A program made the position numbers and the translations under genes. Below, piece by piece: positions 39,177 to 56,253 of a stretch of DNA of 64,000 nucleotides. Numbering within the stretch: position 1 is the stretch's first letter; the number at the start of each line of letters is the position of its first letter. The DNA comes from Parcubacteria bacterium C7867-008 (GTDB lineage Bacteria > Patescibacteriota > Minisyncoccia > Phycocordibacterales > Phycocordibacteraceae): NCBI GenBank assembly GCA_001189215.1, contig LFCR01000006.1, forward strand, positions 840-64,839, read 5' to 3'. Under the pieces are notes generated by a model, which made no database searches, was not told the origin of the DNA, and was given only the letters and a program-made list of their open reading frames with translations.

Positions 39177-40211
39177 ATGAGAAGTGATATCTTTCTTTCG
39201 CGTCCGGGACCTCGAGTATCTTCGAGGTATTTAGTAATTCCCAACCGATATTCCTTCAAGTTGGTTCGTAGTGTCCGTCAGCCAAAGGAGGCGCCTGCAG
39301 TGTCTTCTGAGTTTGCTCCAGCAACTATCCGTGAATCTGTAGTTGCTGAAGTAGTAGCACAGGTTGTTCTAGATGCGGAAGTACGTGAAGTGGTACGTGT
39401 TCCAGGAAAAGGCAGCAAAAAGAATAAAAAGGAGGTTTCTGAACGAGTTGATGAGAGCAAACGACTATTCCTTCGTTTAGCTGGTATTGCAGGTCTCGGT
39501 GTAGTGGCATCAACGGTCCTCCCTAAAAATGCTCAGGCATATGTAATGGGAAGCTCACCAACCTCTGGAGTAGTGGGTCTAAAGAATGGATCTAATGTAC
39601 GTGTCGATCCTGCTACCGAAGGAGGTAACCTGGCTTCAATAAAGACCAATACAGATCCGCTTGTATCTTCTGGCGGAGGTGGGTATGTGCGCCAGGACTC
39701 TACCGCAACCATTGCAAAAGAGACGGGAGGTAATCTTGCCACAATAGCAGGAAAGGATTTTGCTACGGAAGCAACTCTCGCAGAGATTAAGGCACAAACT
39801 GACAAGTTCACCTTCAGTGGCAGTAACCTTCTTACGTCAGGTGGGGGAGGGGGCGGCGGTGCTGTTACGGTTAACGACACCACTGACACACAGATCAATC
39901 CAGCCACTGATGAGGGAGTCACGCTCTTACGTAGGCTTGTTAAGCAATCTGATTCGTTGGCGGTGGTGGATTCAGCACAGCGTCAGAAGGTAACCATCGA
40001 TTCAATCAGTGGATCACTCACTCTTGGTACGATAACAACCGTGGGTACAGTGACGGCAGTTACCACGGTTTCTACCGTAACCACCGTTGGTACCGTTACT
40101 TCTGCTACCAACCTGGTTGCTCTAGGAGGTGTTGATGGAAGATATCTACATATAGATACGGCGAGGAACATGTATGCTAATGGTATACGGAGCAATTTGG
40201 CATTCTCCTAA
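39177..40211 (+). CDS. Secreted Thr/Gly-rich repeat protein with internal twin-Arg-like (KR) signal
   Basis: ...SERVDESKRLFLRLAGIAGLGVVASTVLPKNAQA/Y has n-region KR-x-F-L-R, an h-region and AQA cleavage site, like a Tat signal. It lies about 95 codons into the ORF, so the true start is probably an internal GTG near 39.39-39.41 kb. Features include GGGGG linkers, repeated NLA(S/T)I motifs and a C-terminal (T-V-G)n tract. Confidence 0.4.
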   Translation: MRSDIFLSRPGPRVSSRYLVIPNRYSFKLVRSVRQPKEAPAVSSEFAPATIRESVVAEVVAQVVLDAEVREVVRVPGKGSKKNKKEVSERVDESKRLFLRLAGIAGLGVVASTVLPKNAQAYVMGSSPTSGVVGLKNGSNVRVDPATEGGNLASIKTNTDPLVSSGGGGYVRQDSTATIAKETGGNLATIAGKDFATEATLAEIKAQTDKFTFSGSNLLTSGGGGGGGAVTVNDTTDTQINPATDEGVTLLRRLVKQSDSLAVVDSAQRQKVTIDSISGSLTLGTITTVGTVTAVTTVSTVTTVGTVTSATNLVALGGVDGRYLHIDTARNMYANGIRSNLAFS

Positions 40212-40217
40212 TTCTGT

Positions 40218-43055
40218 ATGGCACTTACCAACAACCTTAAACCGCAAGTAGATCTCCCCGTCTGGGAGTGGTGTCGCTTTGCGCCTACGGCATCAGTGGC
40301 CTTGTCTGCATTCGCTACGGCTGATGATGGTAGTGCTCGACATATCTACTACATCTCTGCTTCAACCTTCTATCGCTATGATACGTATGCAGATTCTTGG
40401 CAGCAGCTTGCAACCCCTAACGTAGCACCGCTCACCACTCTCGCACTCAGGTACACCGGATATCGCGGGTACCATGGTCGAATTCTCAGTGCCGGCGCAA
40501 CAAGTGTTCAGATAGGTGGTCTTCGCGGGAACACCCTCAACGGAAAAACAATCAGAATACTCAGTGGCTCTGGTATCGGACAAGACCGTGTCCTTACTTC
40601 CACGGGTGAGACGGTACACGACATGGGGGTTATCACAGGAACTACCACACTCACCCTTGCTGACTCCACTAAGAAATGGAAATTCAATCAATGGTCTGGA
40701 TATACCGTTGGTATTACGTTCGGAACAGATGCCACACAGTATAAGAAGATCCTGTATAACGACACCACGACGCTCTATATAGGTGATGCAAACCTACAGC
40801 CTCATGATCCATGGAATAATCAGGCATTTGCTGCTGTGGCACCATATGCGGTACCAGTTACCACCGCCGGTTCGCAAGCGCACTATCAGATTCTTTCTAT
40901 GAGTTACTCGGTTGCTGCGTGGGACACTACACCTGATTATCGTTCGAACTACACAACGGCAACAGGTGGACTGTATCTCATTTCTTCTTCAGCATCAGCA
41001 CCTTTCTTTACTCTGCAGTACTACGACATCATTCATGATTCCTGGCAGACCAAGACGTGTAACCAAGGACTACTTGCAGCGGCATTGGGTACAGACTGTA
41101 CCTTTGAACGTTTGGCAAAAACGGGAACAGCCTTTCTAAGCTCGACCGCTACGGCGGGTGCCGCACGTACTCTTACTGATACGGTGCAGACTATGACAGT
41201 CGATAGATACTCGAATTATCGACTTCTCATTACAGGAGGTACAGGCGTGGGACAAAGTAGGAGAATAATTTGTAATACAGCAACTGTCTTCACACTAAAC
41301 AAAGCCTGGGATACCAACCCAGACAACACTTCAACCTATGAAATATGGGGTGATTATGACAAAGCATTCCTCGCTGGAGGTGCAGCGGGTGCCATGTATC
41401 AATATTCCCCAAGCAACGATTTCTGGATGCAGGGTAGCAGTTTTGATGATGGTGTGGTTGCAAACATAGCCGTTAAGATGAATGGTTGGGAGGCATTAGG
41501 TGTAACAACTGGCGCCAGAATTGCAGCCGGTGTTACCGCCGTTAACGCAACACCAACAGCAGGCGGTACGGGTTATCTAGTAGGGGACATCCTGACTTGT
41601 TCTGTCGGTGGTACTGGTGCACGTGTGATTGTTACCGCAATTGCACCCACGGGTATTGTTTCGACAATAGAACTTGTGGCATCGGGTACGGTGACGGGCT
41701 TTACAACGGGTACTGGAAAGGCGACCACGGGTGGTACTGGATCAGGTTGTACGATTGAAATAACATCGATTGGTGCAACCTGTCTTATTACAACCGCATC
41801 AGCAAGCTGGTTTAAGACAGGAGATTCAGTAACATTCTCAGGATGTTCTGATGGTGCATACAATGCGGCACACACTATCCTTGGTGCAGGCTCAACCACC
41901 ACATTTGATGTTGCAACCTCTGCAGCAGGTTCTATGGCCGCATCTAACTCACAATCAACAACGGTTATTGTGGACCCAACGAAGAGCTGGACGGTAAACG
42001 AACATGTGGGTAAGCTTGTGCATCTCTCGGTTGCGGGTACTGCTCCTACCGCTCAGATTCGTTGGATAACGGCTAACACTGCAACCACCCTCACGGTGGC
42101 AACCATCGTTGCTGGTGTAAACGGAACATCGAAGTACGCTATCTATGACTCAAAGGTCTTTGGAACAGATAACCAGTTCAAGCCTGCTAACCAGCAGAAC
42201 TGGGGTCATGCATCTGGTGGTTCAACTACAACACTCGCAGACTCCTCGAAGAGTTGGGTTGTTAACTCTTGGGCAGGGTATAAGTTACGTATTGAGTCTG
42301 GAACTGGTTTTGCATCAGGAATAATCTCAATAACCTCCAATACTGCAACGACACTTACGTATACAACACAGTCATTCACACCAGATGCAACTACTCATTA
42401 CGAGATTGCGGATAGCTGGGGTCTAATGACAGCAGCATCAACAACAACGGTAACTGAGACAGCAACTAAAAACTGGACGGTGAACATGTGGGCAGGTAAG
42501 AGGATCCGTATTAGTGGGGGAACTTCTCCTGGACAAGAGGTCTCTATTACTTCAAATACTGCCACTGTCCTAACAACGGCAACATTAACGCTTCCTGATA
42601 CCACCTCAACGTATGCCATCTTGGGTATACCGGCCCGTGGTGCGGGTACACAGCTCTTATGGATCTGGGGGAATACCGATGCCACAACAAAAGGAAAGTA
42701 TGTTCTTTTGCCAAGAGGTGGCGCATCAAACAGCGCGGATCTTTACGATGTTACGACAGCACGTTGGTTATACGGTTACTTCTTCTCACCTCAAGCTGAA
42801 ACATTCACGACCGGTTCTATGTATGCGTATGACGGTGTGAATACTATATATATGCAGAAGGATGCAACAGGTAGGGTGATGGCGTATGACTTCTCAACAA
42901 ATGCAATCACAACACTAGGCACCATACCGTATGGTCACTCAACGGCGATAATAGGGAACCGCATGGAGATTATAGAAACAACAGACGGTCTGAAGTATTT
43001 GTACATGATGCGACACACAGGATCTGAAGTCTGGCGTATGTTGATATTCTTTTAA
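40218..43055 (+). CDS. Large (945 aa) Thr/Gly-rich protein with five copies of a ~50-aa K(S/N)W-x-VN-x-WAG-x7-GTG-x-GQ-x3-I-x-SNTAT-x-LT repeat
   Basis: Five repeat instances in the translation: TKKWKFNQWSGYTVGI..., SNYRLLITGGTGVGQSRRIICNTATVFTLN, TKSWTVNEHVGKLVHL...ANTATTLTVA, SKSWVVNSWAGYKLRIESGTGFASGIISITSNTATTLTYT, TKNWTVNMWAGKRIRISGGTSPGQEVSITSNTATVLTTA. I recognise no domain. Start 7 nt after the upstream stop. Confidence 0.5.
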   Translation: MALTNNLKPQVDLPVWEWCRFAPTASVALSAFATADDGSARHIYYISASTFYRYDTYADSWQQLATPNVAPLTTLALRYTGYRGYHGRILSAGATSVQIGGLRGNTLNGKTIRILSGSGIGQDRVLTSTGETVHDMGVITGTTTLTLADSTKKWKFNQWSGYTVGITFGTDATQYKKILYNDTTTLYIGDANLQPHDPWNNQAFAAVAPYAVPVTTAGSQAHYQILSMSYSVAAWDTTPDYRSNYTTATGGLYLISSSASAPFFTLQYYDIIHDSWQTKTCNQGLLAAALGTDCTFERLAKTGTAFLSSTATAGAARTLTDTVQTMTVDRYSNYRLLITGGTGVGQSRRIICNTATVFTLNKAWDTNPDNTSTYEIWGDYDKAFLAGGAAGAMYQYSPSNDFWMQGSSFDDGVVANIAVKMNGWEALGVTTGARIAAGVTAVNATPTAGGTGYLVGDILTCSVGGTGARVIVTAIAPTGIVSTIELVASGTVTGFTTGTGKATTGGTGSGCTIEITSIGATCLITTASASWFKTGDSVTFSGCSDGAYNAAHTILGAGSTTTFDVATSAAGSMAASNSQSTTVIVDPTKSWTVNEHVGKLVHLSVAGTAPTAQIRWITANTATTLTVATIVAGVNGTSKYAIYDSKVFGTDNQFKPANQQNWGHASGGSTTTLADSSKSWVVNSWAGYKLRIESGTGFASGIISITSNTATTLTYTTQSFTPDATTHYEIADSWGLMTAASTTTVTETATKNWTVNMWAGKRIRISGGTSPGQEVSITSNTATVLTTATLTLPDTTSTYAILGIPARGAGTQLLWIWGNTDATTKGKYVLLPRGGASNSADLYDVTTARWLYGYFFSPQAETFTTGSMYAYDGVNTIYMQKDATGRVMAYDFSTNAITTLGTIPYGHSTAIIGNRMEIIETTDGLKYLYMMRHTGSEVWRMLIFF

Positions 43056-43057
43056 TT

Positions 43058-43927
43058 ATGAATATTGACTACCTTACACAGCTCCTCACGAACCGACTTG
43101 CAGCGCTCGCACTCGCAAAGGACCAGGCATTTCAGTCTGGAGACCTTGAGCGTATCAATACGGTTGATATTGAGATTGCTGATGTAACCAATACCCTTGG
43201 ACAGCTTCGTCTTCTGTCAAATATAAATATTGCTGCAGCAGCAACGAACACGACCGCAGCTCAGATTGTTTCAACAGGACTTGATGCTGTGCAAAATGTT
43301 GTTCAGGGGCCATCGGCAGGAGCAATCATAAATGGATACGACATTTCTGCGTATGCAACGGACCCCCTCTATGAACAGAAAGTGCAGAACATACTTGATG
43401 CCATGCCACTCTTTGTGACGGCTGATGATATTGACCAGTACATTCAGACCACAGCAGCAGGGAGTTCTGTAACTGGAGCCATGATACTCACGTCAGCTGC
43501 ACAGTACGCAATTGATTCGAGACTCATGATCGCAATCATGCAGAATGATTCACAGTTCGGTACCCAGGGAGTAGGGGCACGAACCAATAATCCAGGAAAC
43601 GTTGGCAATACAGGTACGGCGGAACAAATGTTCCCTTCTTGGGAAGAGGGTGTTGGTGCGGTAGCCAGCTGGCTAAGTAGACACCGAGCAGTAGTTATCG
43701 CCGAAGCGCCAATAGTCGTTGAACCTGTTGTCGAACCTGTTGTCGAACCAGCACCTGCTCCAAAGAAAGTTCGAAAACCAAAGGTAGTACCTGAACCAGT
43801 GGAAGAAATTGTAGTTGACGTACCACCTCCTGTTGAAGAAATACCCCTTCCTGTAGAAGTACCTCTTCCAACGGCGACCACAACCCCCACAGGAACTGAT
43901 GATATTACCACCACTACGCCTGCATAG
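43058..43927 (+). CDS. Hypothetical secreted protein with peptidoglycan-hydrolase-like motifs and Pro/Val/Glu-rich C-terminal tail
   Basis: SAYATDPLYEQKV resembles the YATDPxYxxK block of glucosaminidase/FlgJ-type muramidases. IAIMQNDSQFGTQGVGARTNNPGNVGN resembles their N-x-FG block, but the order is inverted relative to canonical. C-terminal (VEPV)3, PAPKKVRKPKVVPEP and TTTPTGT. Confidence 0.4.
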   Translation: MNIDYLTQLLTNRLAALALAKDQAFQSGDLERINTVDIEIADVTNTLGQLRLLSNINIAAAATNTTAAQIVSTGLDAVQNVVQGPSAGAIINGYDISAYATDPLYEQKVQNILDAMPLFVTADDIDQYIQTTAAGSSVTGAMILTSAAQYAIDSRLMIAIMQNDSQFGTQGVGARTNNPGNVGNTGTAEQMFPSWEEGVGAVASWLSRHRAVVIAEAPIVVEPVVEPVVEPAPAPKKVRKPKVVPEPVEEIVVDVPPPVEEIPLPVEVPLPTATTTPTGTDDITTTTPA

Positions 43928-43949: not shown

Positions 43950-44681
43950 ATGGAGGAGATTGATGTATATGTTGCAGAATACGGCGACTACCTAGAAGAA
44001 ATACGTAAGCGACTCTATCGTGTCGTGATAGTGTTTATTGTTTCATTCCTGATTGGCCTTTTCTCCACAAACCTGTTCGTCCACTTCTTCTTAACCTTCC
44101 TTAAGGTTAAGGACGTAATTATAGTTGCCACGTCACCGTTCCAGCTTTTGGATCTTGCCATGACCACAGGATTCTTCCTGGCAACACTTATTACGATACC
44201 GTTTGCTATACAGCAGACTTATACATTCTTGAGTGGGGGGCTGTTGCCACAAGAGCGGAAGATATTCTTCACGCTCATTCCGCTCACGGTCGTCTTGTTC
44301 TGTATTGGATTTACCTACGGATTCACCGTCATGTACTACGCGGTGCAGGTTATTGCCCAAGTGAACATTGGATTTGGTATAGCCAACCTGTGGAATGTTA
44401 CCCAGTTTATCTCGCAAATACTCCTCACCTCAGCTCTACTAGGTCTGATATTTGAATTTCCAATCATATTAACGCTTCTTATACGGCTAGGGGTCTTTCC
44501 GGTGTCATTTCTACGAGCAAAAAGAAGGGTGGCTATTGCCATAATTGTCATTTTTGTTGCTTTACTTCCCCCAACTGATGGACTATCCTTTATGGTAATG
44601 TCCTTGCCGTTGGTGGGCATCTATGAGCTGACGATATTCCTCAACTCATTCTACAAACGGAAAGTACCCTTAGAAAAATAA
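43950..44681 (+). CDS. tatC: Sec-independent protein translocase TatC
   Basis: 243 aa with 6 TM helices. Conserved N-terminal amphipathic region (HLEELRKRL-like: YLEEIRKRLYRVVIV) and typical loop lengths. Confidence 0.8.
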   Translation: MEEIDVYVAEYGDYLEEIRKRLYRVVIVFIVSFLIGLFSTNLFVHFFLTFLKVKDVIIVATSPFQLLDLAMTTGFFLATLITIPFAIQQTYTFLSGGLLPQERKIFFTLIPLTVVLFCIGFTYGFTVMYYAVQVIAQVNIGFGIANLWNVTQFISQILLTSALLGLIFEFPIILTLLIRLGVFPVSFLRAKRRVAIAIIVIFVALLPPTDGLSFMVMSLPLVGIYELTIFLNSFYKRKVPLEK

Positions 44682-44692
44682 CTCTCGCATCT

Positions 44693-44860
44693 ATGTTTGG
44701 ACTCGGATCAAATGAACTGATAATAATTGCAGTCATACTCGTGCTCCTCTTCGGTGCAACTCGCATCCCAGCACTCACCAAAGGTATTGCTGAAGCGATT
44801 CGCGAACTTCGCGGAGCGTTCAAGGACGAAGAGTTTACAGACGGCAAGAAGAAATCCTAA
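44693..44860 (+). CDS. tatA: Sec-independent translocase TatA/E (55 aa, absent from ORF track because it is under 60 aa)
   Basis: Manual translation gives MFGLGSNELIIIAVILVLLFGATRIPALTKGIAEAIRELRGAFKDEEFTDGKKKS. This has the canonical TatA TM helix, hinge (LFG) and amphipathic helix. Confidence 0.75.
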   Translation: MFGLGSNELIIIAVILVLLFGATRIPALTKGIAEAIRELRGAFKDEEFTDGKKKS

Positions 44861-44999
44861 TCTCGCAACGAGACGGATACGGCCTCTAAATCAGTCAGAA
44901 ATGACGGGTATAGGGGCCTTCTTCATGCATTCCTAATGGTAGAATTACAAGAACAGTGACTTTTCCGTAGGGATGAGTATCTGGGGCATAGCGTGTGAT

Positions 45000-47900
45000 A
45001 TGAATCTACATTTTCCCTACAAAGCCTCCAATCACATTCCTGCCTGGCGGGCTTTTCTACTGATACTTACATTTCTCTCACTACCGCTCATAACCTTTGC
45101 TGCATATCAAGAATTTCTCCCGGGCGCTCAAGTGCAAATAGGGGAGTTTGTATACGATGACGACTTCCAAGCAACCACAACGGCAAATTGTACTGTAACG
45201 GTATACGACCCAACAGGAGCGGTTGCGGTAAATGCAGCATCTATGACGGCAACAGCGAACAGCTGGTATTCATACTCATTCACCCCTGATTCTATTGAGG
45301 GTACCTGGCCTGCAATTATGTCTTGCGGGTCTCAACTAAGCGGAGATCTTATAAAAGGCGATAAAACATTTATTGTTACTTCAAACATTGTTTCCTCTAC
45401 ATCAGTAGCAGCACTCGTTAATGCAAACACAGCAACGGTGGTAGCTTCAGCAAGTTCCTCTCTCGCTGCCACATTACCGGTTTCGATATGGGGGTACTCA
45501 GCGCGAACGCTGACATCTTTTGGCACACTCGTGAACGACATCTGGTCTAACGGCACACGATCCCTCACATCAGGGGTCGCAATAGCTAATGATATTTGGG
45601 CTGCAACAACACGCACCCTTACTGGTGCAGGTCTCGACTCAGGTTCACTCGCAGTCCAGTCTGATGTAACAACCGCCTCATCGTCACTAGGCGCTGCAAT
45701 AACAAACTCTCAGACAGCAATTAATGCCAACACCAATGCGACGGTACTCACTGCCACTACGTCTCTTGCAGCGATCATAAATGCTAATACCAATACGATT
45801 GTGGGCACTGCATCAAGTTCAATCGGAAGTTCGCTTGCATCTATTGCGTCATCAATCGTTTCGATCCCAACCAATGTCTGGGCAGCAGCAACACGTACCC
45901 TCACGTCAGGCACGAGTATTGCGGCAGACATTTGGGCTTCAACAACAAGAACCCTCACGGGAGCGGGACTTGATACTGGATCACTTGCGGTACAGTCTGA
46001 CGTAAGTACCGCATCATCATCTCTTGGCGCGGCCATCACAAATAGTCAAGGTGCTATTAATACAAATACAAATACGATAGTAGGTAATGCATCAACCTCA
46101 CTCGGAATTTCACTTACTTCGATCGCGTCATCAATTACTTCCATTCCTGCTAACGTCTGGGCAGCGGGCACACGCACACTCACTGGCTTCGGTACGTTGG
46201 CAGCGGATGTCTGGACGAATGGTACTCGCACCCTTACTGGTGCAGGTCTCGACTCAGGTTCACTCGCTACACTGGGTGATCTAAATACAGCATCCTCATC
46301 GATAACCGCTTCTGTAAACGCAAACACTAATAGCGCTATCCTTACTGCAACATCTTCAATAGCGTCAGTAGTAAATGCAAACACTAATACGATAGTAGGG
46401 AATGCCTCATCATCCCTTGGTACCTCTATTGCAAGCGTGGCATCTTCAATTGCCTCTATCCCAACCAATGTCTGGGCAGCAGCAACCCGTACTCTAACTT
46501 CAGGCACGAGTATTGCAGCAGATATCTGGGCTTCAACAACAAGAACCCTCACGGGAGCAGGCCTAAGTTCAGGCTCACTCGCCGTACAATCTGACGTAAC
46601 CACTGCGTCATCATCTCTCGGTGCTGCGATCACAAACTCTCAGACAGTAATAAACAGCAACACCAACAGTGCCGTACTTGGTGCGTCAACATCACTTGCA
46701 GCAGTGGTTAACGCTAACACCAACACTATTGTTGGGAATGCTTCAACCTCACTCGGCACGACACTTACTTCAATTGCTTCTTCCATCACATCAATACCAA
46801 CCAATGTCTGGGCAGCTGGCACACGTACCCTCACCGGATTTGGCACACTTGCAGCGGATGTATGGACATCAGGAACACGCACTCTCACGGGAGCAGGCCT
46901 AAGTTCAGGCTCACTCGCCGTACAATCTGACGTAACCACCGCTTCGTCATCACTAGGTGCTGCGATCACAAACTCTCAGACAGCAATTAACGCAAACACT
47001 AATGCGACTGCACTCACCGCGAGTACGTCACTTGCAGCTGTTGTAAATGCAAATACGAATACAGTAGTGGGTAACGCATCTACTTCACTTGGCGCATCGC
47101 TTACTTCAATAACATCTTCTATCGCAGCACTACCTGCATCAGTCTGGAACGTTGCTACCAGCACTCTCAATACCGCCGGCTCAATCGGCAAGCAGCTTGC
47201 ACTCAATGTTGACGCTGCAATTTCTAGTGTCACGGGAGGGGTTGGTTCACTTTCAGCTGCCGATGTCTGGGGCTATTCAACACGTACTCTCACCGGAGCT
47301 GGTCTCTCATCAGGATCTCTCGCCGTACAGTCTGACGTAACCACCGCTTCGTCATCACTAGGTGCTGCGATCACAAACTCTCAGACTGCCGTAAATGCAA
47401 ACACAAATAGCGCAGTCCTAACTGCATCAAGCTCGGTAGCTGCAGTTGTTAACGCAAATACCAACACTATTGTTGGTAACGCATCTACATCACTCGGCAC
47501 CTCAATTGCTAGTGTTGCCTCATCAATTGCTTCAATACCTACTAACGTCTGGGCAGCAGGTACGCGCACACTCACTGGCTTCGGAACACTAGCTGCTGAT
47601 GTTTGGGTCAGTGGTACTCGCACACTCACCGGCGCTGGTCTAAGTTCAGGCTCACTCGCAGTCCAGTCTGATGTAACAACTGCATCATCATCTATTGGCT
47701 CAGCCATCACAAACTCTCAGACTGCAATTAATGCGAATACGAACTCTGCCGTACTAACTTCAAGTACATCACTCGCTGCAGTCATTAATGCGAACACTAA
47801 TACTCAGGTACTGAACGCTTCCACGTCTCTTGGAACGACCCTTACTTCAATTGCCTCGTCCATTACGTCTATCCCAACAAACGTATGGGCTGCAGCAACC

Positions 47901-49187
47901 CGTACTCTAACTTCAGGAACAAGTATCGCAGCAGATATCTGGGCCTCTACAACCAGAACCCTTACAGGCGCTGGTCTCTCATCAGGCTCACTCGCCGTAC
48001 AGTCTGACGTAACCACCGCGTCCTCATCTATTGGAGCAGCAATAACAAATAGCCAAACAGCTATCAATGCGAATACCAACTCGCAAGTATCAGCAGGAAC
48101 AGCAAGTGTTAACTCAAACACCAATACCAGTATTAGTACGGCATCATCTTCACTAGGTGCATCTATAGCACTTGTACCAGCTAGCGTGTGGGCATACTCA
48201 ACTCGCACACTGAGTAGCTTCGGTGCGCTAGCAACAGATGTTTGGAGTGCCACTACACGAACTCTCACCTCGCTCACACTTTCTTCTCAGAGTCCGTGGA
48301 CCGTGAACATGTCTGACTTCGGAGCAATATCAGCAGGAGACACGTATCGGGCAACGGTAACAACAATCTATAACGGTACACTTACCGATTCAGCGAGCCT
48401 ACCACTTATCACGGTCTATGACCCAACCCGTAACGTTGTGGTCTCTGCGGCAGCAATGACGCGCACAGGAGTAGGAACCTACGAGTACTCGTATGTAACA
48501 AGCCCAACTGCAGAGGGCGGTGTATGGGAAAGTATTATTTCTGCGACGGTTGAAACCGGAAAGACTCTGCCAGGAAATGACTACTGGAATGTCACTACAG
48601 CTCCTGCACAGGTGGTCATCACAAGTATTGGTTCAACGCAGGTACCTAATATAAGTGCAAATGTACGTATCACGAACGAAGGTGACATACCGTACGAATA
48701 CTCGTATGAGTGGTGTGTTGTATCAGACCCAAGTAATGCTTGTGGCGGGGGAGACGATACCTACTATGGTTCTGCAGCGAAGCTCATCTCACCGGGAGTA
48801 GACTTTGATACAACCCTCACTGCAACCGTGCCAGTACCAGGTGTCTACTACTTCAAACTCGCCGTGTATTACGGAACGGAGATATCGCGTGCATCACGTC
48901 TGTTCACTGCTACTGCTGCAACAACAGGCGGAGGGGGTAGTGGTGGCGGAAGTGGGGGAGGTAGTGGTGGAAGCGGAGGAACACGACCCTCTACTCCCGG
49001 CTCTTGTTCAGATAGTCGTATTGCAGACATTAACTGTGATGGACGAGTTAATGGTATAGACTTCTCAATCCTTCTTGCGTTCTGGAAGACCAACCCACCA
49101 TTCGCTAATCCACGCGTCGACCTTAATGCAGATGGTCACGTTGATTCGGTGGACTTCTCAATTCTTCTCTACAACTGGGCTCGCTAA
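45000..49187 (+). CDS. Giant secreted fibrillar repeat protein (~1,395 aa) with C-terminal dockerin module
   Basis: Signal peptide MNLHFPYKASNHIPAWRAFLLILTFLSLPLITFAA. An N-terminal beta-sandwich-like domain is followed by ~10 tandem ~93-112-aa repeats (WAAxTRTLTxGxxIAADIWxSTTRTLTGAGLSSGSLAVQSDVTTASSSLGAAITNSQTAINANTN...GNASTSLGTSLTSIASSITSIPTNV). A second beta-sandwich-like domain and a Gly/Ser linker lead to the dockerin, a duplicated Ca-binding segment DINCDGRVNGIDFSILLAFW...DLNADGHVDSVDFSILLYNW. The ORF-track start at 44973 is also possible. Confidence 0.7.
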   Translation: MNLHFPYKASNHIPAWRAFLLILTFLSLPLITFAAYQEFLPGAQVQIGEFVYDDDFQATTTANCTVTVYDPTGAVAVNAASMTATANSWYSYSFTPDSIEGTWPAIMSCGSQLSGDLIKGDKTFIVTSNIVSSTSVAALVNANTATVVASASSSLAATLPVSIWGYSARTLTSFGTLVNDIWSNGTRSLTSGVAIANDIWAATTRTLTGAGLDSGSLAVQSDVTTASSSLGAAITNSQTAINANTNATVLTATTSLAAIINANTNTIVGTASSSIGSSLASIASSIVSIPTNVWAAATRTLTSGTSIAADIWASTTRTLTGAGLDTGSLAVQSDVSTASSSLGAAITNSQGAINTNTNTIVGNASTSLGISLTSIASSITSIPANVWAAGTRTLTGFGTLAADVWTNGTRTLTGAGLDSGSLATLGDLNTASSSITASVNANTNSAILTATSSIASVVNANTNTIVGNASSSLGTSIASVASSIASIPTNVWAAATRTLTSGTSIAADIWASTTRTLTGAGLSSGSLAVQSDVTTASSSLGAAITNSQTVINSNTNSAVLGASTSLAAVVNANTNTIVGNASTSLGTTLTSIASSITSIPTNVWAAGTRTLTGFGTLAADVWTSGTRTLTGAGLSSGSLAVQSDVTTASSSLGAAITNSQTAINANTNATALTASTSLAAVVNANTNTVVGNASTSLGASLTSITSSIAALPASVWNVATSTLNTAGSIGKQLALNVDAAISSVTGGVGSLSAADVWGYSTRTLTGAGLSSGSLAVQSDVTTASSSLGAAITNSQTAVNANTNSAVLTASSSVAAVVNANTNTIVGNASTSLGTSIASVASSIASIPTNVWAAGTRTLTGFGTLAADVWVSGTRTLTGAGLSSGSLAVQSDVTTASSSIGSAITNSQTAINANTNSAVLTSSTSLAAVINANTNTQVLNASTSLGTTLTSIASSITSIPTNVWAAATRTLTSGTSIAADIWASTTRTLTGAGLSSGSLAVQSDVTTASSSIGAAITNSQTAINANTNSQVSAGTASVNSNTNTSISTASSSLGASIALVPASVWAYSTRTLSSFGALATDVWSATTRTLTSLTLSSQSPWTVNMSDFGAISAGDTYRATVTTIYNGTLTDSASLPLITVYDPTRNVVVSAAAMTRTGVGTYEYSYVTSPTAEGGVWESIISATVETGKTLPGNDYWNVTTAPAQVVITSIGSTQVPNISANVRITNEGDIPYEYSYEWCVVSDPSNACGGGDDTYYGSAAKLISPGVDFDTTLTATVPVPGVYYFKLAVYYGTEISRASRLFTATAATTGGGGSGGGSGGGSGGSGGTRPSTPGSCSDSRIADINCDGRVNGIDFSILLAFWKTNPPFANPRVDLNADGHVDSVDFSILLYNWAR
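45470..48300 (+). repeat. Intragenic tandem repeat array (~280-340-bp units, about 10 copies, many more than 90% identical at DNA level)
   Basis: For example, ccaaccaatgtctgggcagcagcaac(a/c)cgtac(c/t)ct(c/a)ac(g/t)tcaggcacgagtattgc(g/a)gcaga(c/t)at(t/c)tgggcttcaacaacaagaaccctcacgggagc recurs at about 45.87, 46.46, 47.87 kb. Sister variants occur at 46.80 and 47.55 kb. Confidence 0.8.
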
Positions 49188-49198
49188 CGATTACACGT

Positions 49199-50047
49199 AT
49201 GAAACCTTTCTTCCTTTTCGCTCTTATATCACTCACGGTACTTGCACCAACAATGGTGCATGCTGCAGTGTTACAGATGGTTCCATCGCCCGCCACTGAA
49301 GGACAGGAATTCTCAGTACGAGTACAACTTCTTCCGGAAGGAGAGGCGCTTAATGCAGTGGAAGGGAACATACATATACCAGAGGATCTACAAGTGACTC
49401 GAATTAGCACAGGAGGATCAGCGCTCACCTTGTGGCCAGCACAGCCAGCATTCTCACATGCTAGTGGAGAAATATCATTTGCAGGTGGTACTCCAGATGT
49501 GCTCTCTTCAGGCGCTTCCGCACAATTGTTCACTATCTATCTAAAAGGCGACACACAAGGATCCTATAAAATCACCCCTGAAGATATTGCAGTCTTTAGG
49601 GCAGACGGTACCGGTACACGAATAAGCGCATCTGCTCCTGTTGTTTCTATAGCGCTTGGGACAGAAGTAGTTCCTGCTGAGAATTTAACTGATAGGAGTG
49701 CACCATATGACGTTACTGCGGCAATTGGAACGGACCCATCACTATTTGATGGGGCACCATTTGTATATGTATATGGTCGAGACGAAGGTACCGGTATCGC
49801 ATCATATCAAGTAAAAGATGGGTGGTTTGCACGCTATCAAACGGTTGGACAATACTACGTTCTCACCGCTCCTCAGAATACTCAGCCAATATGGGTACGT
49901 GCAGTTGATGGGGTAGGGAATATACGTGCTGTGCATGTACCCCACACCGGAGGAGTCTTGTACTACGGAGTATTTGTTCTTGCAGCACTTCTTATGATCC
50001 TTCTGGTACTCCTAGCAGTACGGTATCGCAAACGATTAATCTCCTGA
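49199..50047 (+). CDS. Cohesin-domain protein with C-terminal transmembrane anchor
   Basis: Signal peptide MKPFFLFALISLTVLAPTMVHA. The cohesin-like beta-sandwich signature is AVLQMVPSPATEGQEFSVRVQLLPEGEALNAVEGNIHIPEDLQVTRIS...GEISFAGG...AQLFTIYLKG. C-terminal TM VLYYGVFVLAALLMILLVLLAV plus RYRKR. Confidence 0.6.
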   Translation: MKPFFLFALISLTVLAPTMVHAAVLQMVPSPATEGQEFSVRVQLLPEGEALNAVEGNIHIPEDLQVTRISTGGSALTLWPAQPAFSHASGEISFAGGTPDVLSSGASAQLFTIYLKGDTQGSYKITPEDIAVFRADGTGTRISASAPVVSIALGTEVVPAENLTDRSAPYDVTAAIGTDPSLFDGAPFVYVYGRDEGTGIASYQVKDGWFARYQTVGQYYVLTAPQNTQPIWVRAVDGVGNIRAVHVPHTGGVLYYGVFVLAALLMILLVLLAVRYRKRLIS

Positions 50048-51489
50048 TGAAAAAGAATACTCATCAATTCCTGTTCCTCTTCATCCTGCTGGTACTGCCA
50101 GGGGTATCGAGCGCAGCAACGATGAGTCTTTCGCCGTCCTCTACCTCAATCAACACTGGAGATATTGTCACCGTGCGCGTTGTGGTAAACCCGACAGGAA
50201 CGGCAATAAATAATGCAGAAGGTATTGTTCGGTTCCCCCCAGATATGCTTAAGGTGCTGTCGGTGAGTAAATCAAGTTCCATATTTCCTCTATGGGTAGA
50301 GGAACCATACTTCTCAAACAGTGCAGGTACCATATCGTTCAATGGAGGTGTGCCTAATCCGGGAGTAAGTTCTCCAGGAACTACACTATCTATCTCTTTC
50401 AATGCATTACGACCTGGTACAGCAACTCTCAGTATTTCTGATTCAGCCGTACGTGCAAATGATGGTTTTGGTACCAACGTTCTTACAAATTCCTATGGAA
50501 CACAACTCACCATAACCTCAGCTGTAGCAGTACCTACTCCAACGCCAACCAAGCCGGTAGAGAGCGGTACTAAGACTCCTTCAAGCGGACCGATTCAAAT
50601 CACCTCAAGTACTCATCCTGATCAATCGGTCTGGTATGCAAATGCGAACCCATCCTTTACCTGGGATCTACCAAAAGGTGCAACTTCAGTTCAGTTAGGC
50701 ATTGATCAATCATCAAGCGCTGTTCCAACCGTAACGTATGCGAAGCCAATTGAAGAAAAGACCATAGATACCGTCGAAGACGGCATATCGTACTTTGCTC
50801 TTAGATATCGATCGGGCTCAACATGGAGTGAGGTGAGTCGATATCAAGTCCGAATCGATACGGTAGCACCGGTAATTACGAGCCATGACTTCCTCTATGA
50901 TCAGAGTCAGGATGCAGTACTCGTACGCGCTACTGGTATGGACAGTGGTTCAGGTATATCAACCTATGAGATAGCAGTTGATGGAGCAGAACCGATTGTC
51001 ATTCAAGGGAATACCTTTGCAGAACACTCACAGTCCATCAAGGTACGTGGTGCAGGCATACACAGCATTACCTTGACCGCCTTAGATGCTGCCGGTAACC
51101 GTACCCGTGTTGATGGATCTATCTCAGTACCACCATCGCTTAGTACTCAAATACTCTTCCGCATCGGTCCGATAGCATTCAATCTCCTCTCGGTACTCAT
51201 CATCATGAGCCTGCTCCTCATACTTGCCCTCATGGCAGCGCTTCTTGAGTGGCGCACTATTCTCGGATATAAGTCTCGTCGTGATCCAAACATTCCACTA
51301 ATCCGTAAGGATATGCACCGAGGCTTCCTTAAGATGAAAGAGAATATGGCAAAGGATATTCGCGCACTGGATCGTGCGCGCACCAAGAGAGATCTCTCTC
51401 GAGAAGAGCTCGCGCTCTACAGGCGACAAATGGAGAATATGACAGCACTTGAGCGTCATATTGCTAAGCAGCTTACAGACGCTGAATAA
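50047..51489 (+). CDS. Cohesin-domain protein with Ig-like middle region, C-terminal TM anchor and charged cytoplasmic tail
   Basis: Signal peptide ...LVLPGVSSA. Cohesin-like block ATMSLSPSSTSINTGDIVTVRVVVNPTGTAINNAEGIVRFPPDMLKVLSV...GTISFNGG...TLSISFNALRPG. A Pro/Thr linker precedes the TM LLSVLIIMSLLLILALMAALL and a ~90-aa cytoplasmic tail. Start codon overlaps the upstream stop. Confidence 0.6.
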   Translation: MKKNTHQFLFLFILLVLPGVSSAATMSLSPSSTSINTGDIVTVRVVVNPTGTAINNAEGIVRFPPDMLKVLSVSKSSSIFPLWVEEPYFSNSAGTISFNGGVPNPGVSSPGTTLSISFNALRPGTATLSISDSAVRANDGFGTNVLTNSYGTQLTITSAVAVPTPTPTKPVESGTKTPSSGPIQITSSTHPDQSVWYANANPSFTWDLPKGATSVQLGIDQSSSAVPTVTYAKPIEEKTIDTVEDGISYFALRYRSGSTWSEVSRYQVRIDTVAPVITSHDFLYDQSQDAVLVRATGMDSGSGISTYEIAVDGAEPIVIQGNTFAEHSQSIKVRGAGIHSITLTALDAAGNRTRVDGSISVPPSLSTQILFRIGPIAFNLLSVLIIMSLLLILALMAALLEWRTILGYKSRRDPNIPLIRKDMHRGFLKMKENMAKDIRALDRARTKRDLSREELALYRRQMENMTALERHIAKQLTDAE

Positions 51490-52507: not shown

Positions 52508-53346
52508 GAGAGTGCAATTGCTAGACTGAATCCGACCAACAGAATAAGAGAGTAGAAGAACGTCTTTCGTGCCCATCGGGCATCGTTTTGTACAAAGAAT
52601 CCTGCGCCCGCAATAGAAACCCATCCAATGGTGAGAATGGTCATAGGAATTGTATAGATGAGACCAAGAGTATTAACGAGATACAGTGCGTACACAGCAA
52701 CAGCAAATAAGACTGCATGCACAAACATTAATACTTTCGTTGGCAGTATCCCCATAGACACGGGCATCACCGGAAGCTTTGCATTGCGATAGTCCTCTAA
52801 GCGGAAGATTGCGATAGCAAAGAAATGCGTCATCTGCCAACACACAAGAATGATAAAGAGGAGAACAGCTGTTTCATTCAATACATTCATAACCGCCACA
52901 TATCCCACTACCGGCGGCACAGCACCCGCTGCAGCTCCGATAATCGTACTGTGTACCGTCAGACGTTTTGCGGGAGTATAGAGTGCAATGTATGCGAACA
53001 CTCCTAAGAGCGTAATAAGGAAGGTGAGGAGGTTGGTAAAGAAGTAGAGCGAACCAAGACCGATCACAATGAGTACTGCACCAAATATAAGTGCACCACG
53101 TACAGGGATCCTTCCATTTGGAATAGCACGTCCTTGGGTACGTTTCATGTGCACATCAATATCCCGATCCATCACGTTATTTACTACGCATGCTCCAGCA
53201 ATAGAAAGGGAAAGACCAAGTATGGTGGCTACTAGAAGAGGGAAGGATACCGCTACTCCAGCAGCAAAGACGAAGGCAGCAAGCGCCGTCATCGCATTTC
53301 CATATACCATTCCTGGCTTTGTGAGGCGATAGTATTCTTTCATCAA
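52504..53346 (-). CDS. cyoE: Protoheme IX farnesyltransferase (heme O synthase)
   Basis: UbiA-family motif NNVMDRDIDVHMKRTQGRAIPNGRI with 8-9 TM. Last gene of the oxidase operon. Confidence 0.85.
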   Translation of the reverse strand: MMKEYYRLTKPGMVYGNAMTALAAFVFAAGVAVSFPLLVATILGLSLSIAGACVVNNVMDRDIDVHMKRTQGRAIPNGRIPVRGALIFGAVLIVIGLGSLYFFTNLLTFLITLLGVFAYIALYTPAKRLTVHSTIIGAAAGAVPPVVGYVAVMNVLNETAVLLFIILVCWQMTHFFAIAIFRLEDYRNAKLPVMPVSMGILPTKVLMFVHAVLFAVAVYALYLVNTLGLIYTIPMTILTIGWVSIAGAGFFVQNDARWARKTFFYSLILLVGFSLAIALS

Positions 53347-53717
53347 TGTAGTTCGTGTGCGGGTGACACCATACCATCCTCATACAGCTCCTGCGTGGTG
53401 AGGGGCATCATATGGAGATGTTCAAGATTACTCATGATCCAAAGGGTACCCACTATAACAATCGCAATGATTAGTCCTGTTATCGAGAAGATAACGAGGT
53501 TCCATCGCGGCTTTGATTCTGAACCAAGATGAAGAAAGAATATCAACTGAACAAACAGCTGAATGAGCGCGGTGATAACAATCGCAGGAACAGCTAACGT
53601 ACCCAGCTGCGGTGCTACCCAAAATGCTAAGAGAGTGAGGAATATCGAAAGAGCAAAGCCCAGTACATATGAGCCCAGTGTTCCGTGCGGTATATCCGTG
53701 TGTGCGTGTTTGGTCAT
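53343..53717 (-). CDS. cyoD: Quinol oxidase subunit IV (CyoD/QoxD-like)
   Basis: 3 TM helices. N-terminus MTKHAHTDIPHGTLGSYVLGFALSIFLTLLAF resembles CyoD. Start at the internal Met to abut cyoC. Confidence 0.65.
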   Translation of the reverse strand: MTKHAHTDIPHGTLGSYVLGFALSIFLTLLAFWVAPQLGTLAVPAIVITALIQLFVQLIFFLHLGSESKPRWNLVIFSITGLIIAIVIVGTLWIMSNLEHLHMMPLTTQELYEDGMVSPAHELH

Positions 53718-54283
53718 AGGGAGCCAAGTAAGTATACGAGGGAGAACAGACAGATCCATACAATATCGAGGAAGTGCCAGAAGAGAGAGAAGTACACAAT
53801 CCTCTTACTCATCTTAGGTGTAAGGCCACGAATGCCTAGATAGATGAATAGGGCAATGAGCCACGAGAGTCCAACAAAGATATGTAGTCCGTGTGTCCCA
53901 ACGAGCGTAAAGAATGATGAAAGGAAGGCACTTGCTGCCCAGCTGTGTCCTTCGGACACAAGCATACCGAACTCGCTCAACTCCATACCAAGGAATGTGG
54001 CACCAAGAGCAAACGTAGCGAGAAGAGAGAGCCATACGCCGACAGTATTCTTTGCCCGAGCTGCCAGTAGTGCAAGACCGCACGTAAAACTGCTTGTTAG
54101 AAGAATAAGAGTCTCAATCAATACGAATGAACGATCGAAGAGTTCAGCACCGCCAGCACCACCAGCCGTCTGTGTGTGCAGTACCGCATACGCAGCAAAC
54201 AGGGAAGCAAAGAGAATACAGTCACTCATGATGTATACCCACAGTCCAAATGAAACCTGTTCGTGTGTGTCGTGTTTCTTCAT
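53714..54283 (-). CDS. cyoC: Quinol oxidase subunit III
   Basis: 189 aa with 5 TM helices. FGLWVYIMSDCILFASLF...HWHFLDIVW (the W-HFVD-VVW-like C-terminal motif of subunit III). Confidence 0.8.
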   Translation of the reverse strand: MKKHDTHEQVSFGLWVYIMSDCILFASLFAAYAVLHTQTAGGAGGAELFDRSFVLIETLILLTSSFTCGLALLAARAKNTVGVWLSLLATFALGATFLGMELSEFGMLVSEGHSWAASAFLSSFFTLVGTHGLHIFVGLSWLIALFIYLGIRGLTPKMSKRIVYFSLFWHFLDIVWICLFSLVYLLGSL

Positions 54284-54285
54284 AC

Positions 54286-56253
54286 CTATTTATGGTGACG
54301 TTGCTCCGTCGCTTTCACGAGGTGCGCAGGGACTACATATTCTGTTTCATCAGCAAAGGAACGAACAACAATGGTAACGAATATACCGATGAGTGAAACA
54401 GGGAGTAACCACCACATGTGCCACACCATGCCGAATCCGAACAGGAATGAGAACCCTGCGATTAGGAGGCCAACGCAACTATTCTTTGGAAGGAGTATGT
54501 CCTGATACCCAGCTTCATGTGTCTGCTTCTTCTCTTTCATGGTCCACCACGCATCCCGACCATGTACGGTTGGGATATGTGCAAAGTTATAGAACGGGGC
54601 AGGTGATGGTACAGACCATTCAAGTGTTCGTCCATTCCAATAGTCACCCGTACGATCCATATGGCGCTTACGTTCAAACGTACTTACTGCATAGCATATG
54701 AATTGTGCTGCAGCGCCAAGCGCTATGATTCCTGCACCAACCGCAGCTAGTACCAAGAGCGGATGATAGCCACTTGCTGCATCCACGAAATCAAGACGAC
54801 GTGTCATACCCATCATGCCGAGTATGTATAGCGGTATGAATGCCATAGCAAATCCAACGATCCAGAGCCAGTACGAAACCTTACCCAGCATCTCGTTCAG
54901 ACCAAAGCCAAAGATCTTGGGGAACCAGTATGCAAATCCACAGAAGTATCCAAAGAGTACTCCACCAATAACCATGTTATGGAAGTGTGCAACAAGGAAG
55001 AGACTGTTGTGCAACTGGAAGTCCACTGCCGGCACAGACATAAGTACACCGGTCATGCCACCCAAGATGAAACTGAATAGGAAGCCCATGAACCAGAGCA
55101 TGGGCACAGTGTATTTAATACGTCCACGGAACATAGTAAAGATCCAATTGAATACTTTTACACCCGTTGGTATGGCGATAACCATCGTTGCAATACCAAA
55201 GAATGCGTTAACATTGGCTCCAGCACCCATGGTAAAGAAGTGGTGTACCCACACACCAAAGGAGAGTAAAACAATGGCCATGGTCGCTACCACCATAGAG
55301 GTGTATCCAAACAATCGTTTCTGTGAGAAGACAGGAACGATCTCAGAGAAGATACCAAATGCAGGAAGGATAAGAATGTACACCTCCGGGTGACCCCATG
55401 CCCAAATAAGGTTTACATACATCATCGCGTTACCCCCAAGATCGGTACTAAAGAAATGCATACCAAGCACACGATCAAGTGCAAGCATTGTCATGGTGCC
55501 GGTAAGGATGGGGAAGGCAAAGAGCACGAGTAGCATTGAACCTAGCACAGTCCAGACAAAGATCGGCATGCGCATGAGCGTCATGCCTGGTGCTCGTTCC
55601 TTTATAATTGTCACAATAAAATTCACGGCAGCAAGAAGCGTTCCGATACCGGAGATCTGGAGTGCCCAGATGTAGTAATCAACTCCAACACCGGGACTGT
55701 ATGCGATCTCAGAAAGAGGAGGATAGGCAAGCCAGCCCGTCGCAGCAAATGCGCCAACCACAAGAGAAAGATTCACTAGCACCGCACCGGTAGCGGTAAG
55801 CCAGAAACTGATGGAGTTTAGAAGAGGGAAGGAAACATCACGTGTACCAATCTGAAGAGGGAGAATGCAGTTGATGAGACCAAACATGAATGTCATGGCC
55901 ACAAAGAAGATCATAATCACACCATGTGCAGTGAATACTTGCGCAAAATGGTCAGGAGAGAGATAGCCTGTCCCTGCACCAACCGCGACAGCCTGCTGGC
56001 TACGCATCATGAGCGCATCAACGCCACCGCGTGCAAGCATGAGACCTGCAAGAATCAGATACATGATACCGATTCTCTTAGCGTCTAGAGAGGTGAGCCA
56101 TTCAGTCCACAACCATTTCCAGCGTTTCGTAATAGTAAGGAGAAGCACTACAGAAAGTGCACCGCCCACCACAATGAGCTGTGCGCCAGTTTCTATTGGG
56201 CCATGTATAAAAGCTTCGGGGGTAAGGATACCGAACATATTAGTGGTGCTCAA
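54286..56253 (-). CDS. cyoB: Heme-copper quinol oxidase subunit I
   Basis: 655 aa. WAWGHPEVYILILPAFGIFSEIV, HHFFTMG, the VAHFHNMVIGG His ligands and 14+ TM helices are unmistakable. Confidence 0.95.
   Translation of the reverse strand: MSTTNMFGILTPEAFIHGPIETGAQLIVVGGALSVVLLLTITKRWKWLWTEWLTSLDAKRIGIMYLILAGLMLARGGVDALMMRSQQAVAVGAGTGYLSPDHFAQVFTAHGVIMIFFVAMTFMFGLINCILPLQIGTRDVSFPLLNSISFWLTATGAVLVNLSLVVGAFAATGWLAYPPLSEIAYSPGVGVDYYIWALQISGIGTLLAAVNFIVTIIKERAPGMTLMRMPIFVWTVLGSMLLVLFAFPILTGTMTMLALDRVLGMHFFSTDLGGNAMMYVNLIWAWGHPEVYILILPAFGIFSEIVPVFSQKRLFGYTSMVVATMAIVLLSFGVWVHHFFTMGAGANVNAFFGIATMVIAIPTGVKVFNWIFTMFRGRIKYTVPMLWFMGFLFSFILGGMTGVLMSVPAVDFQLHNSLFLVAHFHNMVIGGVLFGYFCGFAYWFPKIFGFGLNEMLGKVSYWLWIVGFAMAFIPLYILGMMGMTRRLDFVDAASGYHPLLVLAAVGAGIIALGAAAQFICYAVSTFERKRHMDRTGDYWNGRTLEWSVPSPAPFYNFAHIPTVHGRDAWWTMKEKKQTHEAGYQDILLPKNSCVGLLIAGFSFLFGFGMVWHMWWLLPVSLIGIFVTIVVRSFADETEYVVPAHLVKATEQRHHK

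Follow-up and report, generated by a model that had tools for sequence, protein, structure and literature searches.

A large all-beta protein in a Tat-linked gene cassette of Parcubacteria and its homology to a phage virion protein

Described systems and the protein pair of the window

The twin-arginine translocation (Tat) pathway moves folded proteins and complexes, and in its 'hitch-hiker' mode of co-export, exemplified by HybO/HybC of Escherichia coli hydrogenase-2 and by DmsA/DmsB, a subunit devoid of a signal is encoded beside the partner that carries the sole twin-arginine-type signal. In phages, fibre modules are mosaic, and the receptor-binding tail protein Gp45 of Staphylococcus phage phi11 holds a five-bladed beta-propeller 'platform'. 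Closest to the system reported here is the gp65/gp66 pair of Pseudanabaena phage Pam2, a 142.9-kb siphovirus (ON014754.1). Here, we analyse a 945-amino-acid (aa) protein of Parcubacteria bacterium C7867-008, a member of the candidate phyla radiation (CPR). Its open reading frame (ORF) is present, exactly as originally predicted, at 40218..43055 (+) of a 64,000-nucleotide stretch of contig LFCR01000006.1, called the window hereafter, and directly follows the 344-aa ORF of a small partner (39177..40211, +). We propose that the 945-aa protein serves as the large subunit in a phage-derived or phage-type module of two proteins, and that the cell uses this virion-type pair after exporting it folded via Tat, the large subunit riding on its partner; we see about even chances for this use and export.

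The homology on which this proposal is built is almost certain: the large subunit and its partner are homologues of a phage virion protein pair. Pam2, the sole deposited phage with a full-length homologue, encodes the 875-aa protein gp66, which is 38.7% identical to the large subunit with 89% query coverage (E-value 7e-61, tblastn). As in the window, a gp65-like small gene lies directly upstream, and the C-terminus of the small partner is 48% identical to the C-terminal ~100 residues of Pam2 gp65 (E 4e-18). Both ORF66 and the adjacent 150-aa ORF65 of Pam2 are marked 'identified by mass spectrometry' of virions (Table S2, PMC9382816). Presence in the virus particle is thus known for the Pam2 pair, whereas the pair of the window is known from chromosomal genes alone. 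The two modules also differ in their composition, as that of Pam2 includes phrog_1084, collagen-like and minor-tail-like genes, is devoid of a signal peptide and has no Tat gene, no glucosaminidase-like gene and no gene of the c4 or c6 type (see below) nearby. With a divergent viral homologue as the query, a second tblastn contributed nothing beyond a partial match in Synechococcus phage S-CRM01.

The family of the large subunit is large and mostly viral. A first search retrieved more than 736 homologues, the best 120 of which are all ~945 aa long and 57-100% identical to the query. A profile search over 1.84 billion cluster representatives yields 6434 members at E <= 1e-3, of which 343 reach E <= 1e-30. 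Total lengths vary widely, and in many members the match is confined to the N-terminal ~420 and the C-terminal ~210 positions of the profile. By a pattern scan of IMG/VR, 155 full-length relatives were confirmed, on contigs of 7-353 kb, and a comparable scan of one genome per GTDB species found 23. The latter are mostly labelled as CPR; some of their labels are implausibly diverse (Gammaproteobacteria, Bdellovibrionales, Bathyarchaeia) and look unreliable. In one instance, a contig of a Peregrinibacteria metagenome-assembled genome (MAG; locus L008) has a gene order and protein lengths identical to those of an IMG/VR contig (L025), and it is therefore probably a binned phage contig or a prophage.

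On most viral contigs, the large subunits are 44-62% identical to the 945-aa protein, and the orthologue of an uncultured phage in BFVD has the same fold (TM 0.93). Viral contigs with a family member encode a family-B DNA polymerase (PolB), a dUTPase, PhoH, a glycosyltransferase, a ribonucleotide-reductase-like protein recognised by inspection, virion structural proteins (phrog_1645) and phrog_1084; the latter, to which Pam2 gp61 belongs, is a recurrent neighbour in metagenomic phage loci. Another neighbour is a multi-copy, fibre-like family of 100-1600 aa, cluster c1, which adjoins the small and large genes on one side or on both in 45 loci (within viral loci L034-L104). Its N-terminus is of the type M-A-T-Q-V-K-I-K-R-R-T-...-L-x-x-G-E-(M/L)-A, and its members match the PHROGs families 'tail spike' and 'virion structural protein'.

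As judged from profile searches, the large-subunit family and the ~67-aa repeat domain that it contains are uncatalogued. The 945-aa protein has no Pfam match above threshold and no match in PHROGs or NCBIfam, and PHROGs holds no family for Pam2 gp65 or gp66. When 80 diverse repeat instances were each scanned against Pfam at E <= 1, no family was matched by more than one of them. PDB sequences compared with the family and repeat profiles gave chance matches only (HLA and antibody chains, E > 0.5), and the sole Pfam match of five long family members (1596-2534 aa) is a DUF5122 propeller inserted in one of them. The original prediction had placed the repeat outside the domain families known to it, and in these searches, as in the fold comparison with the PDB described below, it indeed stands outside them.

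Homologues are recorded as 'Mucin-2 precursor' or 'Flagellar hook-length control protein FliK', names given by automatic annotation (Parcubacteria C7867-004 and C7867-008). Neither name finds support in the 945-aa protein, which no Pfam or NCBIfam model matches; both are artefacts of that annotation. The 'FliK' label of Pam2 gp66 (ON014754.1; locus L105, 14995-17622) was taken from a BLAST match to Parcubacteria C7867-004 (PMC9382816).

Repeats and fold of the large subunit

At least five copies of a ~50-aa repeat had been announced from the sequence. Two motifs recur in the protein: W-x-[VF]-N-x-[WH]-x-G at four sites (aa 154, 591, 680 and 753) and N-[TD]-[AT]-T at five (aa 181, 353, 620, 708 and 780). 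The periodicity was assessed with a hidden Markov model (HMM) built from units 3-5 only, which was run on the N-terminal 577 aa and on 500 shuffles thereof. Units 1 and 2, on which the model had not been built, score 25.3 and 27.0 bits, against a mean best score of -0.9 and a maximum of 7.7 bits for the shuffles. The five copies are thus significant, and formal repeat detection upholds the periodicity; self-BLAST of the protein lists no internal match, and it is the HMM that demonstrates the repeat.

The unit borders were obtained after iterating the repeat HMM once over 270 family members. Repeat 1 spans aa 140-207 (40635..40838, +; E 2.2e-22), repeat 2 aa 312-377 (41151..41348, +; E 4.9e-26), repeat 3 aa 577-643 (41946..42146, +; E 1.9e-23), repeat 4 aa 666-731 (42213..42410, +; E 1.8e-25) and repeat 5 aa 738-802 (42429..42623, +; E 6.8e-23). 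The unit is therefore ~65-70 aa long (~67), longer than first proposed, and its consensus across the family, after iteration, is TSGSTTTLTDSTKNWTVNQWAGYRVRITAGTGAGQERRITSNTATTLTVATATATTPDATSTYEIY. Repeats 3-5 are roughly tandem, whereas repeats 1 and 2 stand apart amid other structure. A sixth copy at aa 105-133, truncated and containing G-S-G-I-G-Q, is doubtful, as its 3.6 bits lie within chance.

The repeats of the 945-aa protein are 26-48% identical among each other, whereas single repeats are 61-77% identical to their own orthologues in 37 homologues, which indicates that the duplications are old and that each copy has been maintained individually. Five is also the modal copy number, found in 174 of 269 family proteins with total lengths of 783-2534 aa, which argues that the repeats are a fixed part of the design and not a shaft of variable length. 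In the other proteins of 105 loci, the repeat profile found no instance of the domain outside the large-subunit family.

The AlphaFold2 model of the whole protein, built from a 38-sequence alignment, is all-beta and confident (predicted local distance difference test, pLDDT, 88.3; predicted TM-score, pTM, 0.88), with pLDDT below 50 for residues 1-12 only, and its secondary-structure string is made of short antiparallel strands. Compared as a whole chain with the PDB by Foldseek, it gives only weak matches of the propeller type (DDB1, CPSF160, WD40 proteins; E ~1e-5, TM ~0.1), while local alignments to Kelch and NHL domains reach a probability of 1.0 over 144-198 columns. Repeats 3, 4 and 5 also fold confidently on their own, as a sub-model of aa 570-812 (pLDDT 87.6, pTM 0.82), which indicates that the repeats are compact domains packing in a fixed manner. 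This three-repeat sub-model has no Foldseek match in the PDB at E <= 0.001.

Over 73-87 columns, single repeats locally match the N-terminal beta-barrels of F1/V1-ATPase subunits (root-mean-square deviation, rmsd, 3.2-4.5 A; probability 0.8-0.9) and the tail tip of phage Chi (rmsd 2.7 A). In the models, each repeat thus looks like a separate small beta-barrel of ~70 residues. The barrels of the ATPase alpha/beta subunits and those of phage tail tips and depolymerases are the best local matches to a single repeat (rmsd 2.7-4.5 A), but with E 0.6 or worse, ~10% identity and no sequence relationship, so that the resemblance is one of fold class only.

Around these barrels, the strand pattern suggests blades at aa ~42-99, ~222-278 and ~383-421, with barrels between them, then a further beta domain at aa 427-570 and about three blades at ~828-942. 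The N-terminal Kelch-like blade region, aa 42-99 (40341..40514, +), has borders that come from the secondary-structure string only. The non-repeat beta domain, aa 427-570 (41496..41927, +), is rich in G-G-x-G-Y / G-G-T-G, has long strands at aa 427-442 and 509-526, and has no Pfam match. The C-terminal Kelch-like blades, aa 828-942 (42699..43043, +), would form about three four-stranded units. Blade-like sequence motifs are found at both termini: Kelch_1 (PF01344) matches aa 49-67 below the Pfam threshold (E 0.25, 11.3 bits against a cut-off of 20.1), Str_synth matches aa 869-900 weakly (E 0.014), and a precomputed PF01344 assignment exists for 15 of the 120 listed homologues (the best 120 of more than 736).

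The protein may accordingly be read as a Kelch-like propeller core interrupted by the five barrel repeats and one further beta domain. It would resemble Kelch and NHL propellers by its local fold matches and terminal motifs, and differ from classical Kelch domains in that large inserted domains seem to lie between its blades. Both the number of blades and the topology of the inserted barrels were read from the secondary-structure string and the local fold matches. That the blades close into a ring is tentative, the indications being the blade-like strand pattern and the local Kelch/NHL matches.

Shorter and longer relatives illustrate how the scaffold varies. In the profile search, family members of 780-830 aa match the profile from position 1 to ~420 and over later stretches; in several shorter members, the match stops at ~420-435 and resumes near the C-terminus, and positions ~737-947 form a recurrent C-terminal matched stretch in many members. 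At the other extreme, a 1596-aa member, P0146, carries seven DUF5122 beta-propeller repeats (E 1.6e-92) after its conserved N-terminal ~570 residues, which indicates that whole additional domains can be inserted into the scaffold.

These data also bear on the original suggestion that the protein is a structural component such as a fibre shaft or a beta-helix. Its first half points in the right direction, Pam2 gp66 being detected in virions by mass spectrometry; its second half does not agree with the antiparallel strands. That the repeat builds a fibre shaft or beta-helix is extremely unlikely. The abundance of Thr, Ala, Gly and Ser in the protein would fit such a shaft, as would a weak local match of the three-repeat block to Klebsiella phage depolymerases (7vul, E 7.8e-3). 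In the confident models, nevertheless, the strands are short and antiparallel and the domains compact, the three-repeat block folds on its own, the copy number, mostly five, does not rise with protein length, and Foldseek finds no significant beta-helix match in the PDB, either for the whole chain or for the three-repeat block.

The small partner and the cellular cassette

The small partner starts with an N-terminal region containing an 'NRYSFKLV' motif and has a Tat-like signal at aa 94-125. It also contains three P-A-T-[ED] units, and its C-terminal domain (aa ~240-343) is the part homologous to Pam2 gp65. The protein is also homologous to the product of a 102-aa gene located upstream of a viral large-subunit homologue. 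A member of the small-protein cluster lies directly upstream of the large gene in 93 loci, and judging from this gene order the two genes appear to be obligately paired, in phage and cellular contexts alike. The C-terminal domain contains a three-residue periodic stretch, TVGTVTAVTTVSTVTTVGTVTS at aa ~282-308 of the small partner (40020-40100) and STVSTVSTVSTVSTVSS at aa 96-113 of Pam2 gp65, which is conserved in phages and cells.

The signal, SKRLFLRLAGIAGLGVVASTVLPKNAQA, consists of SKRLFLR, a hydrophobic stretch and AQA. The window holds no second Tat-like motif, and this one agrees with the predicted Tat-signal protein upstream of the large subunit. In the window and in 17 cassette-bearing genome loci, the small protein has the pattern [KR]R-x-F-L-[KR], a hydrophobic stretch and L-P-K-x-A-x-A; a true RR is found in the small proteins of loci L003 and L010 (N-R-R-L-F-L-K), while most have K-R. 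By comparison, a segment of similar hydrophobicity is absent from all 74 viral small proteins, and their sole 'RR' is part of a conserved L-L-R-R-I helix. The small partner of cells thus seems to have acquired a Tat-type signal that the phage versions do not have.

At or near the N-terminus of the small protein, 30-90 residues ahead of the Tat-like motif, a P-x-[KR]-[YH]-S-F-[RK]-L-[VI]-S motif is shared by the window (39177-39470, aa 1-98) and loci L002, L006, L013-L019, L021 and L022. It occurs in cellular versions only, and this part makes their pre-signal region unusually long.

As for the large subunit itself, the predicted lack of a signal peptide is confirmed by motif and hydropathy: it has no Tat motif, and the maximum 15-residue hydropathy in its first 80 aa is 1.32. 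A hydrophobic N-terminus is likewise absent from all large subunits checked, 24 cellular and 78 viral.

Downstream of the pair, the peptidoglycan-hydrolase-like gene and the tatCA genes were found in the order predicted (PF01832, then PF00902, then PF02416). The first of them encodes a 289-aa glucosaminidase-like protein (43058..43927, +; PF01832 E 1.5e-7, 32.6 bits against a cut-off of 30.2), which lacks a signal peptide, begins with a conserved helical segment (MNIDYLxQLLxNRL) and ends in a proline-rich tail. This gene is present in 18 genome-derived loci including the window, in cellular cassettes only. Its products, cluster c2, strongly conserve M-N-I-D-Y-L-I-Q-L-L-x-N-[RK]-L ... G-D-L-E-R-I-N in the window (43058-43200) and in the 17 other loci. 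The conserved N-terminus might dock the protein onto the exported complex.

TatC (43950..44681, +; PF00902 E 1.4e-36) follows and keeps this position across 16 genome-derived loci, the window among them; after it lies a 55-aa TatA (44693..44860, +; PF02416 E 1e-10, 41.2 bits against a cut-off of 21). Next comes the c4 secreted repeat protein of 1404 aa (44973..49187, +), made of W-x-x-x-T-R-T-L-T units, with a Sec-type N-terminal hydrophobic segment, a DUF7032 match (E 6.8e-9) and a C-terminal dockerin (Dockerin_1 E 6.4e-7); c4 is found in 16 genome-derived loci including the window. The long repeats of c4 also hold N-A-N-T-N motifs, and the GC skew of the DNA is strongly negative there (-0.19 at 46-48 kb). 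Two paralogous c6 secreted proteins of 282 and 480 aa, with Sec-type signals, close the series (49199..51489, +); c6 occurs in 9 loci, and an OmpL47-type barrel domain matches it below threshold.

The order small, large, glucosaminidase-like, TatC, (TatA), c4 and often c6 is found in the window and in ~16 further genome loci, mostly labelled as CPR. In addition, tatC and tatA are adjacent to a 72%-identical homologue on an 835-kb contig. None of 80 viral loci has a TatC or glucosaminidase-like gene, and we found no description of the cassette in the literature.

The chromosomal setting is that of a cell. Upstream, the window has lipid-related enzymes and a PEP-utilising-type enzyme, and downstream a UbiA prenyltransferase, a histidine kinase and the four subunits of a quinol oxidase. 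Genes for a terminase, portal, capsid or integrase are not found in the vicinity. Since the flanks are housekeeping genes and phage hallmark genes are absent from the window, the window is chromosomal and not a prophage. The haem-copper quinol oxidase operon (53343-57118, -; COX1, COX2, COX3, COX4_pro, with UbiA adjoining) is unusual for a CPR genome, and the quinol-oxidase genes of this MAG have already been discussed (PMC4508563).

A family tree was built by neighbour joining (NJ) and rooted at the midpoint. The clade of the window comprises the window and L002-L006, each of them in a Tat cassette, and lies nested within the viral ~945-aa radiation. The long cellular forms, of 1100-2330 aa and likewise in Tat cassettes throughout, branch deeply elsewhere, as a clade of their own beside Pam2. 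These two separate cellular placements suggest that more than one exchange between phages and cells took place; the direction of these exchanges is not fixed by such a tree.

The nested position, together with the identity of up to 62% to proteins of viral contigs, which is closer than to many cellular versions, could also mean that the pair is a decaying prophage or a remnant of phage genes without a cellular role, next to tatCA by coincidence. The gene order shared by L008 and viral L025, which probably makes some MAG matches binned phage contigs, goes in the same direction. We nevertheless consider this very improbable. The ORFs are intact and of full length, and an order of at least five genes (small, large, glucosaminidase-like, TatC, c4) is kept in 16 loci whose large subunits are 27-89% identical. 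Moreover, the partner has gained a signal in cells only, and the genes flanking the cassette are of the housekeeping kind described above, none of the four phage genes named there lying nearby.

The tree bears equally on the transfer in the opposite direction, that of an ancestral CPR cell-surface complex captured by phages, for example as a fibre or receptor-binding module. That the long cellular forms branch deeply, outside the viral radiation and beside Pam2, would agree with this, as would the mosaic nature of phage fibre modules. On the other side, viral relatives outnumber genome relatives in comparable pattern scans (155 vs 23), the one isolate with a homologue, Pam2, infects a cyanobacterium and not a CPR bacterium, and a midpoint-rooted NJ tree cannot polarise transfer. 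All in all, capture by phages seems unlikely to us.

Proposed export of the pair and what it would mean

In the mechanism that we propose for the cellular pair, the large subunit would fold in the cytoplasm, as phage particle proteins do, and bind the C-terminal domain of its small partner. The folded complex would then be carried over the membrane by the adjacent TatAC translocase, in a 'hitch-hiker' manner, and the signal-less glucosaminidase-like protein may travel along with it. As phage particle proteins fold in the cytoplasm and Tat moves folded complexes, the large subunit is probably exported bound to its partner. The small partner would make such a Tat-dependent co-export possible, and we consider the latter just as apt to be right as wrong. 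The likeness to known hitch-hikers lies in the signal-less subunit encoded beside a partner with the sole twin-arginine-type signal, near tatAC. The difference is that known cargo consists of redox enzymes with cofactors, whereas the presumed cargo is here a phage-type structural pair, with signals that are mostly K-R.

Outside the cell, the part of the small protein made of P-A-T-E repeats would form a stalk, with the propeller/barrel subunit at its far end as the head. The head would bind a surface glycan or wall component, either of its own cell or of the organism to which the symbiont attaches, and the co-encoded glucosaminidase-like protein would act on peptidoglycan. Adhesion as the function is put forward with less confidence than Tat co-export, and glycan or wall binding is the least supported step of the mechanism. 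Here the comparison with phi11 Gp45 is instructive: both may be virion-type proteins with a propeller possibly binding wall glycans, but no sequence or fold match to Gp45 was obtained, no search being aimed at it, and the large-subunit family is far more conserved than typical receptor-binding proteins.

Alternatively, the large subunit could be cytoplasmic or released by lysis, for example a propeller of a lectin-like or enzymatic kind, with Tat serving the small protein and perhaps others but not the large subunit. This would account for the lack of a signal in every large subunit checked, and many propellers are indeed enzymes or cytoplasmic scaffolds, including those retrieved by the whole-chain fold comparison. 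It would leave unexplained, however, the strict adjacency of the large gene to that of the small partner in both phage and cellular contexts, the presence of both Pam2 counterparts in virions, and the nature of the remaining cassette, composed of secreted or membrane proteins and a wall hydrolase. We hold a cytoplasmic or lysis-released protein to be decidedly improbable.

Several points weigh against folded export of the pair and its use at the cell surface. First, most signals of the small proteins are K-R, a weaker Tat motif than R-R. Secondly, 50-110 residues, including the conserved Y-S-F-[RK]-L-V, precede the signal, which is unusual; with such a long pre-signal region, the hydrophobic segment could be a membrane anchor instead of a cleaved signal. 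Thirdly, tatCA might serve other substrates encoded elsewhere in the genome. The 44-62% identity of viral large subunits is moreover atypical for fast-evolving receptor-binding proteins, and fits better with a conserved structural role. Finally, the binding of the small to the large protein, the export of either and the ligand are inferred, and so is the topology of a propeller with inserted barrels, from the strand string and the local fold matches.

Taken further, the proposal of a folded, Tat-exported pair would be that CPR symbionts took over a phage particle module, made up of the small stalk protein and the large propeller/barrel head, coupled it to a dedicated TatAC and a wall hydrolase, and display a pre-folded, phage-style adhesion device on their surface, possibly for attaching to or breaching the cells on which they live. 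This extension is tentative, and we find it rather doubtful.

Host attachment of the ultra-small CPR bacteria is largely obscure, and most of their surface proteins are devoid of annotation. The present analysis delimits a protein family that is large and uncatalogued, along with a new domain of ~67 aa, apparently a beta-barrel. It corrects the names 'Mucin-2' and 'FliK', which have already spread into a phage GenBank record. It also ties a conserved CPR gene cassette to a protein pair that is experimentally part of a phage particle. The original prediction could see neither the Kelch-like core nor the large, mostly viral family, nor yet the obligate small partner and the cell-only Tat-type signal that the latter bears.

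The Tat-linked cassette is a variant of known themes, namely the reuse of phage structural modules by cells and Tat hitch-hiking, and it suggests how a folded complex of phage type could be brought to the cell surface by Tat with a signal on one subunit only, a concrete route that is open to testing. If true, this would be a clear case of cells reusing phage structural genes, or of the reverse, and it would widen the range of Tat cargo. If the large subunit and its partner do form an adhesion device, they would represent a type of surface apparatus not described before, and Tat cargo of a new class.

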